A DNA stretch of 64,000 nt, from the NCBI RefSeq assembly GCF_053078305.1, contig NZ_CP166879.1. The stretch is one strand, 5' to 3'. Position 1 is the stretch's first letter. The number at the start of each line of letters is the position of its first letter. Shown piece by piece: positions 3,001 to 9,000 of this stretch. Position numbers: made by a program.

Positions 3001-6000
3001 TTGTGATTTTTTCCATCTGGTACATACCCCGTCTCCCGCGCAACGGAAGCTCACAACAATAAAAAGACCACCAGTGGTTTACTGGCGGCCCTGACAGCCC
3101 GTTACAGCATCATGACCGTTTCAGGTTGCGGTTCAGTTGCATCGGCTACCGGTAATTCAGGCTGAGGTTTACCGTTCTCTGCGGTGGTATCTCCCGCTTC
3201 AGTCGGTGGCTCTGCCGGTACGCCGAGCAGCTCATCCAGAATGGCATCCACTTCAGCATCGAGGCGTTCCTCCAGATTCTGGCGAAGTTTCTGTTTCAGT
3301 GCGCTTCTGACTTCTTCAGAGCGAATGACGTCCTTCACTGCCTCTGCAGTGACCAGGGGTTTAATTTCTGACATAGGATTTTCTCGCTGAAAGGGGTTGT
3401 TAAGGAATGAGCGGCTCTTCGGGTTTAGTTCCGGCTGACTGACTGGCGCTGATTTTCTCAGCGGCCCTTTTATCAATCTGCCTGCGCCAGAAATCGCGCA
3501 CAGCCCTGTACCCACCCGAAAGAAGATACAGCACACAGACCGCCGTACAGAAGTACAGCATCACCTGATGAATAAATATCATAATTTCTTACCGTTATGG
3601 TTGACAATGAGAACTGTTTTCATTTAAAAAATAACCGATGTACGAAAGCATCTTTTCTTTACATTCTCCATTGGGATTACCTCCGCCAGCTTCCATTCCT
3701 GCCGCTGGCGGCTTTTTTTAGCAATTATGCGGCTGCTCCAGCTTTGTTTGCTTTAACTTCCACCGTATCAATAAGTACAGGGTAGGTTTCTGCACTACCT
3801 GTAATATCCGTAATGACAAACCTGTTGAGTCCATTAGCAGTATTGGCCCATTTCACCAGGTCAAACGCCTGTCCATCCACACCATCAAGCACCGGAGTAA
3901 CATTAATGCTGTTACTGCCCTTAAATTTAAATGCAAGCGTATGCCAGTCATGGTCGAATGCGCCAAACGTGCCAAGTTCTTTTTGTTGATTACCTGTATG
4001 ATGGTATGCAACATCAATACTGGCTTTATCTGTCTGGACAAAGAAAGAACTCAGATAGCCTTCACCACCCTCACCCGGCCATTCCGCTATTCGCCAGTAC
4101 AAACCAAAGGCATACTTGTTTCTGGTTGTCTCAAGATTGACGTTTTCGGGGATTTTAAACCGGACAGCAATTTCCCCGCCTTTTTCCAGTAAAAGTTTTG
4201 CCTTGTCTGCAGCAATATCACAGTACATTGACCAGGATTTCGCGCTGTTATTTTTCTCAATTCGCAGAGCTTTATTGCCGCTGTCATCAACCAGTGTGCG
4301 TCTGCCATCCATACCGTCCCAGCCATAAGGTTTCAGCTGATTGTCCGAAGCTTTTTTGGCATCGTAAAAAATTACAGACTCTGAGGTGGTAACCGGTCTG
4401 TCTGGAACAACCACCCCGGCAGTACCATTAACAAACGCAGAAGACTTACCCGCGCAGCTCAGTATGGCCGTTGCCAGACGGTCTGAAATAATTCCACGTC
4501 GTGCCCATGAACTGAAATGGCTGGCCCTGTCCTGAGATGTCCAGGTGCTTCTGTCCGTTCGCCATTTTGAACCGTAATACCCGATACCCGGAATATCCGG
4601 GTCTTCTTCCGGTTTGTTCGTCGGGACGTTTGCCCCGTTCTCATCGGTCATGAACGGCACAAAATGGATATTCTTTTCCGTTTTGTTTTTGTAACTACCG
4701 TACACCGTCTGGTACGCCGTTTCGTTCTTCTGCTTCCAGAAATATGTTGTGTCTCCACAAATCCAGGGAACACCGTCAGCAGAACCACCAACACACTGTC
4801 CCACCATATCTGCAAGGTCCGCACGGTATTTATCCACCAGTGCGCCAAACTGAGCCGTGTGATTCGCTGGCGTGCCGCTGAAATCAAACTCCCCCTGCAT
4901 CCACACAACGGCAAGCAGCACATTTTTCGGATTCTTCGCCAGCGCGGCTTTTGTACGACCAATGAGGTCCTTATACAGCGGCTTGTCCACCCCCCAGCGG
5001 GTGGAACTCTCTGAGGCGCCAGTAGTGTCACTGTATGTGCCATCAGTTCCGGTGGTGAAAGCTGAACCACCACGGCAGCACGGAACAAGAAGAATGCCCG
5101 CATTCGCCGGTATAAATGGCAGAAGCTTTTTGGCGATATGCAGCCCCTGTCCCACACAGCCGTACTGACCTTTCGATAAATCCGCTTTGGGATGATTAAG
5201 CCCTGTCATATCCTCCACATCATGGAGACAGTGATCTGCCGGGATAATATCGTTATAGATACATGCAGCACCTCCCGGTGTCACCGTACTGCGACGCGCT
5301 AACTGTTTAATACGTGGATCAGGGCTGTCGAATGTATCCGGTAATGGCAGTCCCTCACCGTATGACATACCATTGGACTGACCAGCAAGCGCGATCACAT
5401 AGTAATATTCTGGCGCAACAGAAGGCGCTGAGGTCGTCGGACGGTTGCCTGGCTCCTCTGGTGATGAGATGCTCCCCTCACTCACAACTGGCTGGATGAA
5501 CTCCGCACCATAACCAGCTGTCGAAATCAGCGCACTACCATAAGGCTGCCACCCTTCCTTCAGTTTTTGAGTTATTCGTTCCGCAAGGTCTGACGGCGAC
5601 GCCGCCCTGACCACGTCATAGTGTTTAAATGCCATGAATCCTCCCGGCCGGGATAATGTACTGAATAAGATAAGGAGTGAGCGGAAGTCCCGAAACACAA
5701 GGGAAAAAGACAACCACCCGCAAAAAAGAAATACACTCCTCACAGTTGCGCAGGGTGATTACTGTAAGGTATTATTCGCAGCGTTAATTAATTGTTCATA
5801 TTGCTTTTCTTCTTGCCAACCGCTCTTCCCGGGGCGGCTTTTTTTTGCATGTAAAAAGGCCCCTGCTATGAGGGGCCCTGGTATATGCCTAATCTCTGTA
5901 TACTGCATGGTGCCGGGTGCCTCCCGGTGAGTTCGGCCTGGTGCCACCAAACCCGCGTATTCTCGCTTACGATCATCAAAGAGATCATACCATTCACCAG

Positions 6001-9000
6001 TCGCCCCTCCGCACAGGGGGATTCACCATGCAGGATTTTTTTAACAAATTCTCAGCCAAGCAAACAACCGTCAACTACCTGAATTGTGAGTGATTTAACA
6101 TTTCACTGCCCAGTGTCTTCCCCTCATTAAAAAGCCCCTCCGGAGAGGGGCTGGAGAGTAGCGCTATGTACCGTTCATTGCATGGTGCCGGGTGCCTCCC
6201 GGTGAGTTCAGTATCAGCACCTGAACCCGCACAGAAAGGATAGAGGTAAAACAGAAACACCTGTGACGCTGATATGCCCCGCCGCTCAGGGGGATTCACC
6301 ATGCAGAAATTTTGTAGCACATCTATTATCAGACAGGCAACAATCAACTGACTGAATTGAGATGTATTTAACATTGATAAATCTCCGCCTGTTCTCTTCA
6401 CCAGGCTATTCTGAGTCAACGGAAAATAACCTCGCTGAATCCCCCTCCATTATGACAGGCATTAGTTTTAATGGTTACCGTCATCCCCGTAATTTGTGCA
6501 CTGAGAAGAAGAGACTGAAGATTCCATCTGTTAGTAAATAATTCTTTATCTCCCACTTTAACTGTAAAGGTATCGTCATCATTATATTTTGTATACTCCA
6601 CCTTCCCAGTTACACAATCTGGCGCAGCCAGCACACTTGCTGAAAAAAATGAAAGTGATGCAGCTATTAATAATATTTTTTTCATTTTACCCCCCTCAAC
6701 TGCTAATAGCCCTGCGTATCAAAATTGCCCCCAGAGTGGATGAGTCCCACAATATTTTATTGTGCGTAATCCCACGCACTCTTCCATCTACCGGGCACAT
6801 AGAAGGAAACTCATCAGGTACAATTCTGGCAACTCGCGATGCATGATGATGACAATTCAGTATTAATGCCACGCTACCCAGAATTGCATTAACACTTCCA
6901 AAAGAAATTCTTCCAACACGAACAGAGTCTTGTCCATGATAGTCAGGCAGGACACTACTCAACCTTCCCCAGTTCAACGTAAGATCAACATCTTCAGCAG
7001 TCATTACATAAGAACGCCCACTGAGATCATCAAGTGTTGTACGAAATCCCCTCTGAATTTGCCGAAAACGTAAAGCTTCAGCTGTCACAGTAACAAACCG
7101 TAACATCGCTCTTGCCACAGACTGCGTCAGTGAGGTTCCGCTATGCGACATTAAATCCAGATAAGAAGTAGTCAACGAATGGCGATTTATCTGCATCCCC
7201 GTACGACTGATCCCCGCAACACGCTGTAACGTGGTATAGCTACTGTCACCAGACAATGTAACCGCAGTTGTACCAGGAAAGGTAACATGTGAAAAATCAG
7301 CAAAGCGATAAAAAACATTATTTGTCCTGTTAACAAATCCTGTCACATATAAATTATTTCGTTCAACAATAAGCCGTAGATTATTAAACCGCCCTTCCTC
7401 TGGATCTATCCCTCTGACATCAACTGCAAACAAATTATCCCCTGTGCCACTATCAATCATCAGTAAAGACGTACCTCCTGATGAAATAGTCTGTAATGGA
7501 GTACCTATTGCAGAGCGAATGACATTCAGCGAATCTACATACGTCTTTGCTGTCGAGAAATCTAAGGTAAATTCCTTCGCAACCACATTAACAGAAAAGA
7601 TAACAAAGAAAAAAGTTAGCACTCTAAAAATTATTATTTTCATATTACACAATACTCCTTGAGCGCCATACGATAACTATATTCTTGACATCCTCCACGC
7701 CCTGAAGGACGGCGTTTTACGGCGCACCGGATAAACGTAACAATAACGTAATGAAAATGATAATCATATTCAAAGAGAGCTGCAACCTTAACATATCTGG
7801 TCAGATCTCATGCGACTACTTGACGTACGTAGACAACAACATTTATTGATACACAGGATGTTACGGACATAAAAAAGCCAGCCACTGGGGGAGGCTGGCA
7901 AACTCGTAGAGCAAAATGCTGTTACGCAAACTTCGTTACAGGGTTATCCTGCAATACTTAAAATATACAATATTTAGAAAACTAATAGTGCCATATGCGA
8001 TTTTTAAGATTTTGTTATTAATTGCGGTCGCACCTTCCTTTCTGTGTACTTTCCGTATAACTAACAGGATTCCGGATACAAAAAACCCGCGCATCGGCGG
8101 GTTAAGCAGCGTGGCAATGTAACCACTCTTATCATGATATGAAGATTTTTACGATCGTAAACTATTTTTTCGCTGATAAAATACAGAGGTTCTCCCTCCC
8201 GGCAATTCACGCTCAACATACCGATCCATCTCAAGCCTCACTCCCAGCATCATCAGCATGCCTTCAACAATCCCCTCCGCTTTGTGAAGGCGTTTACCTA
8301 TACAGGTGTCAGAGCACCCATGTTTCCGTGCCAGCGCCATGAACGTCTCCCCCAACACGTAGTAATCAACCAGCAAGTCATGCAGATCGCGATTGTTCCG
8401 GTAAAGGCGGGCTATGCACCCGCATATCACCATCGCATCATCGTCACAGCACTGTGGACGTGATTTTACTTTTTCGGGGATCAGTCCCTTAAATCCGGCA
8501 GCAATGGGCGACCATGTAACATCCTCATAGTTATTTGCCGCCCATGCACCCCAGCGCTCAAGAACCTGCCGGATATCACGCATCAGTATCTTTACCCCAT
8601 CCGCGGTGAACCATAAGAACACCGTTGACGATAGCGTGTCTTTTCCCTTCTTTATCGCCAATGTATTTTCTGACTGTGGCACGATTGCAGTTCAGTATTC
8701 GGGCTACCTCTGTCTGATTTCCATATGCCTCAACGAGCATGTCAGGAATGGTTTTTACTGTGAACGTCATGCGGCCTCACTTCTGCTGTTTCGCAGGTCT
8801 TTAAGTTTCTGCTGATACTTCGCCTTGATCGCCCTGCATTCTTCGACAGTCCAGCGATGGCGGTTATGGTTCGATTCGATTTCGTCTACTGCTTCCTGCC
8901 CGATGCGGTTAATCAGTTCGACGCGATACGGAACGAGATTTCCGCTTTTGTACTGGTTACACACCACGCATTGCTTGTGGATATTGCGTTCATCAAATCT

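Follow-up and report, generated by a model that had tools for sequence, protein, structure and literature searches.

Convergent pairs of Hfq-bound small RNAs (sRNAs) have been reported in at least eight Sakai prophages (Sp3, 4, 5, 9, 10, 11, 15, and 17), where they lie between a moron gene and a conserved phage open reading frame (ORF) (Tree et al. 2014, PMC4104026; cf. PMC7873438). These "sRNA dyads" map between the late promoter and the lysis genes (PMC4104026; PMC7873438), and specialists consider the reason for the arrangement unclear (PMC7873438). In Sp5, the dyad consists of EcOnc27 (sense) and AsxR (antisense) (PMC4104026). Here, we describe the equivalent region of a Stx1c prophage contained in 64,000 nt of contig NZ_CP166879.1 (assembly GCF_053078305.1), hereafter the window. 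Its interval between the Shiga toxin gene stx1B and the esterase gene nanS-p holds two tandem elements, copies A and B, which belong to the STnc100 family (Rfam RF02076) and very probably are sRNA genes. STnc100-type RNAs directly adjoin Shiga toxin genes, and a 2025 machine-learning study counted sequence variants of the stx2a-linked STnc100 copy among its strongest predictors of haemolytic uraemic syndrome (PMC12711010).

Several members of this family have been detected as RNAs. EcOnc27, located downstream of stx2B in O157, appears on Northern blots as species of ~235 and 247 nt, and the 247-nt form is destabilised without Hfq. It is identical to sRNA103 of EDL933, overexpression of which raises fimZ and espA with no proven direct target. 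EcOnc05 (~222 nt) and EcOnc06 (~177 nt) are also known from Northern blots and from cross-linking and analysis of cDNA with Hfq (Hfq-CRAC). EDL933 expresses 11 STnc100 copies, among them the Northern-confirmed STnc100_4 and one copy that adjoins stx1 (PMC5331693). A 2025 study placed STnc100 75 nt downstream of stx2 and found it in outer membrane vesicles as well. A 2026 preprint relates PasD of enteropathogenic Escherichia coli (EPEC), encoded directly upstream of the esterase gene, to STnc100; PasD is Hfq dependent, has many partners in RIL-seq (ligation of interacting RNAs followed by sequencing), and carries its seed UGUGAG just upstream of the terminator. The STnc100 family and its position in prophages are already known, and an Rfam-based annotation would label both copies. 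The new points are limited to the Stx1c tandem pair and its origin, the common occurrence of arrays of unlike copies, and a covarying crossing helix; they leave the picture of this kind of element unchanged.

Tandem STnc100 genes between stx1B and nanS-p

Annotation guided by a deposited phage with 99.5% identity to the window places stx1A (6696-7652), stx1B (6416-6685), and nanS-p (3725-5635) on the minus strand, and the 780-bp gap between the last two holds both repeats. Scanning against Rfam, first of positions 5000-9500 with a permissive cutoff and then of the whole window at the gathering threshold, matched RF02076 (206 model positions; curated gathering threshold, 47 bits) at two sites. 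Copy A, distal and of the EcOnc27/sRNA103 type, spans 5847-6060 (199.1 bits, E = 4e-47), and copy B, promoter proximal and adjoining stx1B, spans 6122-6333 (138.7 bits, E = 1e-31). Both matches cover model positions 1-206 of 206, terminator hairpin included, and are confined to the minus strand. The RF02076 consensus helices, namely the closing helix, the CCCC, GGGUU, and CCGGG hairpins, and the terminator, occur in both copies and have covariation support across the family. Both RNAs fold 2.7-3.0 standard deviations better than shuffled sequences. The minimum free energy structure of copy B (z = -2.74) comprises a leader hairpin, the closing helix P1, the CCCC hairpin, the S1 hairpin, the CCGGG hairpin, and the terminator. 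The same late-region slot, from Q or a moron gene to the esterase and lysis genes, is used in Stx1c, Stx1a, Stx2a, and non-Stx prophages. We interpret the interval as a pair of neighbouring prophage sRNA genes of the STnc100 family in the same orientation, with a probability of roughly 0.8.

An initial annotation, made from the DNA alone, had listed sRNA genes among the possible roles of the two elements. The search against Rfam that it suggested returned RF02076 for each copy, and the sRNA role agrees with two full-length matches that each end in their own terminator on the late-operon strand. It had also called the strand evidence conflicting. The minus-strand side of that evidence stands, since the Rfam matches are restricted to this strand and the G-U pairs of the helices would be C-A mismatches on the other; the plus-strand reading does not. 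The T7 run on the plus strand (6036-6042) does exist, and on the minus strand it is a conserved A-rich stretch at the boundary between leader and P1.

The repeats, closing helices, internal helices, terminators, and T7 run of the initial annotation were all recovered at the same coordinates. A 31-nt block is 100% identical between 5904-5934 and 6179-6209, and the segments 6003-6049 and 6276-6322, which contain cagggggattcaccatgcag unchanged in both copies, are 85% identical. Terminator regions (5854-5876 and 6129-6151) are 78% identical, and the copies recur with a period of 273-275 nt. An additional repeated block that had escaped notice (6065-6102 versus 6338-6375, 79% identical) shows that the repeat extends over all of the ~275 nt, beyond the ~130 nt first proposed. 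Each gene unit of ~230-275 nt consists of a leader, a four-helix core, a linker, and an intrinsic terminator.

The view that the interval lacks a credible ORF also holds, as its four overlapping ORFs have no Pfam family above threshold. Public records annotate hypothetical ORFs in it inconsistently and on differing strands. A coding sequence is rejected on these two grounds, which likewise speak against a degraded one, an outcome that the initial annotation had considered. A tRNA-like gene is rejected too: ARAGORN finds nothing in 5600-8400, and the likeness is limited to a four-way-junction topology.

Copies A and B are the sense partner of the published dyad, in which EcOnc27, EcOnc05, and EcOnc06 are STnc100 RNAs. 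The EcOnc27 Northern probe corresponds to window plus strand 5872-5906, within copy A, with one mismatch, and the probes for EcOnc05 and EcOnc06 match variable arms of other family members. In Sakai Sp5, the Hfq-CRAC peak of EcOnc27 lies over the leader, P1, and first hairpin of an STnc100 copy. The window copies share with EcOnc27/sRNA103, EcOnc05, and EcOnc06 the family, the slot, the sense orientation, and the convergence with a short sRNA. However, those loci are single copy, whereas this Stx1c prophage has the extra upstream paralogue B and a convergent partner other than AsxR. With respect to RF02076, the whole model is matched, with the same helices, terminator, and prophage late-region context, but here by two unlike tandem copies. 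The model includes nested pairs only and begins inside the leader, so that the actual RNAs are probably longer or shorter than 206 nt.

PasD is a distant relative of the STnc100 copies, scoring 41 bits on RF02076, below the threshold of 47. PasD1 and PasD2 of EPEC E2348/69 (EcOnc13 class), for which common ancestry with STnc100 has been proposed in the literature, resemble the window copies in lying upstream of the esterase gene and share their 5' block, P1, and terminator arrangement. They differ in a reduced core and a long 3' linker with UGUGAG, whereas copies A and B are canonical STnc100 members; a PasD type was rejected for both, given that their linkers, UAUACAGAGAUUAGGCAUAUACCA and UGAACGGUACAUAGCGCUACUCUCCA, do not contain this seed. 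The probe that Tree et al. list for EcOnc13 matches the leader of the Sp15/Stx1a-type STnc100 and not the PasD-like locus of Sp3; the listing may be mixed up and was not used as evidence. Two other candidates were discarded. HnrS, a multicopy prophage sRNA from a 2026 paper, is a different 66-nt RNA (EcOnc10-12), and EcOnc15, considered as the Sp15 counterpart, is StxS and lies upstream of stx1A, not in the stx1B/nanS-p slot.

Adjacent, co-oriented, and separately terminated paralogues with some parts shared and others divergent recall OmrA/OmrB and PrrF1/PrrF2, a comparison made in the 2026 Pas preprint. These are core-genome genes with known targets, whereas the STnc100 copies look recombination assembled and form arrays of up to four. 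The exact 776-bp interval occurs in a single deposited phage, phiSTEC1589-Stx1c, and in ~10 complete E. coli genomes. Stx1a phages have one STnc100, 78 nt after stx1B, and this Stx1c prophage has two. Compared with the Stx1a phages, the window has a 273-bp insertion (6306-6034) made up of core B, terminator B, and leader A, the ends of which fall in the conserved P1 block CTGCATGGTG. The Stx1a unit combines a B-type leader with an A-type core and an A-type terminator, and the core and terminator of copy A are 95-98% identical to this single copy. The same two-copy module is found downstream of Q in a prophage without stx, and 232 of 5426 complete E. coli genomes have a place that covers at least 80% of the two-copy query.

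Longer arrays exist as well. Prophages of the O113:H21 type carry four unlike tandem STnc100 copies and a fifth nearby. Head-to-tail arrays of 3-4 unlike copies, with a period of ~250-270 nt, lie upstream of the esterase gene in O113:H21-type E. coli (loci L006, 2513-3492; L007, 2890-3869; L011; L149; L190), and arrays of 2-4 copies are present in Superficieibacter and Leclercia genomes. We found no paper on the STnc100 family that mentions tandem arrays or a pseudoknot. For annotation and design, it is relevant that Stx1c prophages have two unlike copies, that the first terminator after stx1B belongs to one of them, and that a covarying helix is missing from the Rfam model.

A covarying helix that crosses S1

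The STnc100 core is composed of P1, a CCCCU/AGGGG hairpin, a variable arm, the helix S1 (consensus strands GGGUUCAG/CUGAACUC), and a CCGGG-AGGCA-CCCGG hairpin that joins the 3' strand of P1 directly, with a 0-nt spacer. A segment X, 2-3 nt after the first hairpin, is complementary to X', inside the S1 loop. Core A (5903-6033, minus) has a 10-bp P1 (6033-6024/5912-5903), the CCCCU/AGGGG hairpin (6019-6004), X (CUGGUG, 6000-5995), the variable arm (5994-5955), S1 (5954-5947/5936-5929) with X' (CACCAG, 5943-5938) in its loop, and the CCGGG-AGGCA-CCCGG hairpin (5927-5913). Core B (6179-6306, minus) has a 9-bp P1 (6305-6297/6187-6179), X (UAUCAGC, 6274-6268), and X' (GCUGAUA, 6218-6212), the latter again in the S1 loop. 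Its variable arm and 3' linker are unlike those of copy A.

To examine these helices we gathered 156 units from loci of phages, E. coli, and IMG/VR; among them are 49 distinct cores. With Watson-Crick pairs scored 1 and G-U pairs 0.5, an X/X' helix scoring at least 5.5 forms in the same place in 46 of 48 cores, in ~10 sequence classes. Position-constrained cognate X/X' pairs average 6.67, and 32 of 33 reach at least 5, versus 2.4% of shuffles. Covariation was measured on a covariance-model alignment of 50 distinct sequences. P1 is paired in 99.7% of cells, and 5 of its 7 pairs have changed on both sides. For S1, which the model does not include, the values are 96.7% and 8 of 8, and for X/X' they are 81.9% and 7 of 7; the pairing of X/X' is understated because the MAFFT and covariance-model alignments both shift the CUGGUG group by one column. 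The conclusion on X/X' relies on the alignment-free, position-constrained tests and not on a single alignment register. None of 500 shuffles reaches the observed pairing or covariation score, and slid controls are 16-53% paired. G-U pairs are common (e.g., in 38 sequences at one S1 position), which identifies the minus strand as the RNA strand.

A second, independent set of 72 species from more than 15 Enterobacteriaceae genera was chosen only by exact matches to the flanking blocks. It yielded 80 distinct cores with 36 distinct X strands, and cognate X/X' pairs score at least 5.5 in 71%, versus 6-7% of shuffled or non-cognate pairs. The X/X' compensatory helix is real and family-wide, in at least 36 sequence versions. 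The internal helix preserved by different sequences, which the initial annotation had proposed from the two copies, thereby extends to the whole family, and the absence of covariation among homologues, which it had named as a contrary outcome, is not what the 50 sequences display: P1, S1, and X/X' all covary.

Since X' sits between the S1 arms and X outside S1, the two helices cross, and their topology predicts either a pseudoknot or a switch. Judging from known pseudoknot geometry, a coaxial pseudoknot would be feasible in the E. coli copies, where the linker measures 2-3 nt and the junction 0-1 nt. In some relatives, X' is the entire 8-nt loop, which argues for alternative states instead of a pseudoknot.

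Transcripts, function, and competing readings

Terminator B (6129-6152, minus) has an 8-pair stem (6152-6145/6140-6133; 6 G-C pairs), a UCCG loop, and a U run ending at 6129. Of the terminators in the interval, it is the first that a transcript coming from stx1B would reach. Terminator A (5853-5877, minus) has a stem at 5877-5871/5864-5858, a CAUAGC loop, and UUUUU at 5857-5853, and it stands back to back with a plus-strand terminator at 5820-5846. Both are the terminal hairpin of the RF02076 model, in keeping with the minus-strand terminators assigned at 5853-5877 and 6129-6151 at the outset.

Leader/promoter region A (6034-6100, minus) contains a distal -10-like TTAAAT (6098-6093), the block CUCACAAUUCAG, and TTGACG (6074-6069), followed in its proximal part by a -35-like TTGTTT (6067-6062), 18 nt including TGT, and TAAAAA (6043-6038). 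Region B (6307-6375, minus) is its counterpart. Across 75 aligned upstream flanks, the conserved elements are ..TTAAAT.. CTCACAATTCAG ..GTTGAC.. TTG(T/C)CT.. TTTGTTAAAA .. GCATGG. A candidate distal start ~7 nt after TTAAAT would yield an RNA of ~230-240 nt, in line with EcOnc27 and the Hfq peak over the leader. A candidate proximal start at P1, behind TTGTCT-18-TAAAAA, would yield ~178 nt, in line with PasD and the 177-nt EcOnc06; PasD2 measures 172 nt, and its 5' end is located precisely where the P1 strand begins, behind TTGACT-18-TAAAAA. Two promoters may underlie the size difference or, alternatively, processing at the P1 boundary. The full transcripts probably run from ~6088 or 6031 to 5853 for copy A and from ~6363 or 6306 to 6129 for copy B. 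As a side observation, the leader block at 6081-6092 (CUCACAAUUCAG, copy A) and 6354-6365 (CUCAAUUCAG, copy B) contains, on the minus strand, CUCACA, a motif enriched in RIL-seq targets of PasD (seed UGUGAG), which may be due to chance.

From their relatives, we infer the function of the window copies. In the lysogen, each would give rise to an RNA of ~175-245 nt that associates with Hfq and extends to the copy's own terminator, as its orthologues do, and would act in trans by base pairing, as sRNA103 and PasD suggest. The shared scaffold and the differing variable arm and linker imply that copies A and B probably have different target sets. Terminator B, as the first after stx1B, should end transcripts from the Fur-regulated promoter Pstx1, which would place copy B in the stx1 3' untranslated region. 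Upon induction, Q-modified polymerase from pR' should read through both terminators. Termination of Pstx1 transcripts at terminator B and read-through by Q-modified polymerase are reasonable expectations, given this position and the toxin production without lysis published for Pstx1 (PMC7547250).

Several points weigh against reading the copies as conventional base-pairing sRNA genes. Expression, Hfq-binding, and target data come from orthologues, the sRNA103 effects are overexpression effects without a proven direct target, and the published sizes of 172-247 nt fit two promoters as well as processing. A simple sigma-70 scan finds no promoter for copy A or B; the candidate promoters are weak by consensus, and their assignment rests on the conserved blocks and the published 5' ends of relatives. 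Finally, the flanking blocks are near invariant in more than 15 genera. This exceeds the usual need of seed pairing, and the core may thus have another partner.

A link between copy B and the toxin mRNA is conceivable on other grounds. The 3' end of stx1B contains AGGGGGAUUCA (6436-6446, minus), perfectly complementary over 11 nt to UGAAUCCCCCU in the conserved 5' block of both copies (6025-6015 and 6298-6288). Matches to the 11-mer number three in the 64 kb versus 0.01 expected, and every Stx1 locus examined has the stx1B match, which the Stx2 locus lacks. A more elaborate model, which we put forward tentatively and regard as rather unlikely, would take the family as a modular cassette system and not as ordinary seed-pairing sRNAs. 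A fixed four-way-junction scaffold would bind a sequence-specific partner, and its exchangeable third arm would be closed by the hypervariable X/X', which interlocks with S1 as a pseudoknot or two-state switch. Prophages would hold 2-4 differently "programmed" copies head to tail, and the shared terminator together with the 11-nt match would tie the stx1B-adjacent one to the toxin mRNA.

The idea of a partner also exists in a narrower and less probable form, in which the core would be a scaffold for a protein, for a processing enzyme at the P1 boundary (e.g., RNase P or RNase E), or for a phage or defence factor, with classical seed pairing dispensed with and the helix-closed variable arm being a tolerated or specificity-giving insert. 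It would suit the exact 14- and 17-nt blocks in 72 species (a set chosen by those matches), the CCGGG-AGGCA-CCCGG hairpin without double changes, which points to conservation of sequence and not merely of structure, and the four-way junction in which P1 is contiguous with this hairpin (0-nt spacer). The X/X' and S1 topology of a pseudoknot or switch, the report of both longer (222-247 nt) and shorter (172-187 nt) RNAs, and the position of the PasD 5' end exactly at the P1 start point the same way. Nevertheless, ARAGORN finds no tRNA-like gene, two promoters can account for the size differences, the partner is hypothetical, and a base-pairing sRNA already suffices for the Hfq binding and the RIL-seq chimeras seen with relatives. 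We consider this form improbable.

Slightly further down in our estimate, and quite improbable, is a mainly cis-acting role, in which terminator/insulator modules block Pstx1 and other lysogenic transcription into nanS-p and the lysis genes unless polymerase is Q modified, the structured cores being incidental or merely stabilising for the 3' end. The initial annotation had raised such insulation. It is compatible with the slot directly between toxin genes and lysis cassette, with the toxin production without lysis obtained from Pstx1 transcription (PMC7547250), and with two minus-strand intrinsic terminators, one of them paired back to back with a plus-strand terminator. A terminator, however, needs ~30 nt, and here there is a core of 110-130 nt with three covarying helices and two invariant hairpins, conserved across non-Stx prophages and across more than 15 genera. 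Moreover, orthologues accumulate as discrete Hfq-bound RNAs, and Stx1a phages manage with one copy. Insulation fits the two to three terminators and leaves the covarying core and its occurrence outside Stx prophages unexplained; it is at most a side role of the terminators of these STnc100 genes.

Conservation at the DNA level, through recombination boundaries that shuffle lambdoid modules or a decayed coding sequence, could draw on the 273-bp insertion ending inside the CTGCATGGTG block, the arrays of unlike copies that look assembled by recombination, and the hypothetical ORFs annotated by depositors, but it is highly improbable, as compensatory changes and strand-specific G-U pairs indicate selection on a minus-strand RNA, the ORFs have no family match and are annotated on differing strands, and recombination at conserved blocks follows from their conservation without explaining it.

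The convergent neighbour and other sites in the window

A candidate anti-sRNA-like gene of ~65 nt occupies the AsxR position on the plus strand (5782-5846), with a terminator hairpin at 5820-5837 followed by T8. In its candidate promoter, TTGCGC (5746-5751) and TATTAT (5770-5775) are separated by 18 nt. The AsxR promoter has the same -35 block, CAGTTGCGCAG, and the 5' end mapped for AsxR, CGATTATTAA, is similar to the one predicted here, CGTTAATTAA; body and terminator differ. The hairpin of the candidate gene pairs better on the plus strand, and the Stx1c phage, Ss-VASD, and a prophage without stx (loci L001, L003, and L004) all retain the segment. Convergent partners across loci fall into three classes, namely, the AsxR/AgvB type, a second common type, and the type seen in the window.

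The Rfam models of AgvB and AsxR (RF02702/RF02703) have no match at E ≤ 10 in 5000-9500, this neighbour included. AsxR and AgvB have a conserved ~42-nt 3' region (..GUAUCUCAUGC..UUGCCCGAACCCAcUCGGGC UUUU), and their published sequences are absent here. The initial annotation had brought up AsxR/AgvB-class anti-sRNAs in connection with the tandem elements. Both kinds of RNA belong to the same intergenic slot and the same published dyad. Yet AsxR and AgvB measure 51-60 nt, are encoded on the opposite strand, where they converge with the late operon, and sponge FnrS and GcvB; an AsxR/AgvB identity of the tandem copies is ruled out by their length of ~180-240 nt, their late-operon strand, and the negative Rfam result. 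Because the plus-strand neighbour resembles AsxR, the comparison fits this neighbour instead.

Other terminators and weaker matches lie around the toxin operon. An intrinsic terminator on the plus strand (3683-3719; CCGCCAGC..GCTGGCGG and then T7) is located directly after the nanS-p stop codon, in convergent orientation. Published work puts PasA/PasC at the position just after the esterase gene; PasA was rejected for the window, which has no counterpart of its seed region even when up to 3 mismatches are allowed. Between Q and stx1A, a weak RprA-like Rfam match on the minus strand (7867-7983; 28 bits, below threshold) ends in a strong terminator, and a second terminator-like site lies at 8084-8103 (minus). 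In O157, the pR'-tR' RNA StxS (EcOnc15) maps to this Q-stx1A region. Elsewhere in the window, Rfam matches above threshold at 25728-25910 (plus), 16757-16845 (plus), 35857-35935 (plus), and 46618-47040 (minus) comprise isrK adjoining C4 antisense RNA, sRNA-Xcc1, naRNA4, and the cspA thermoregulator.

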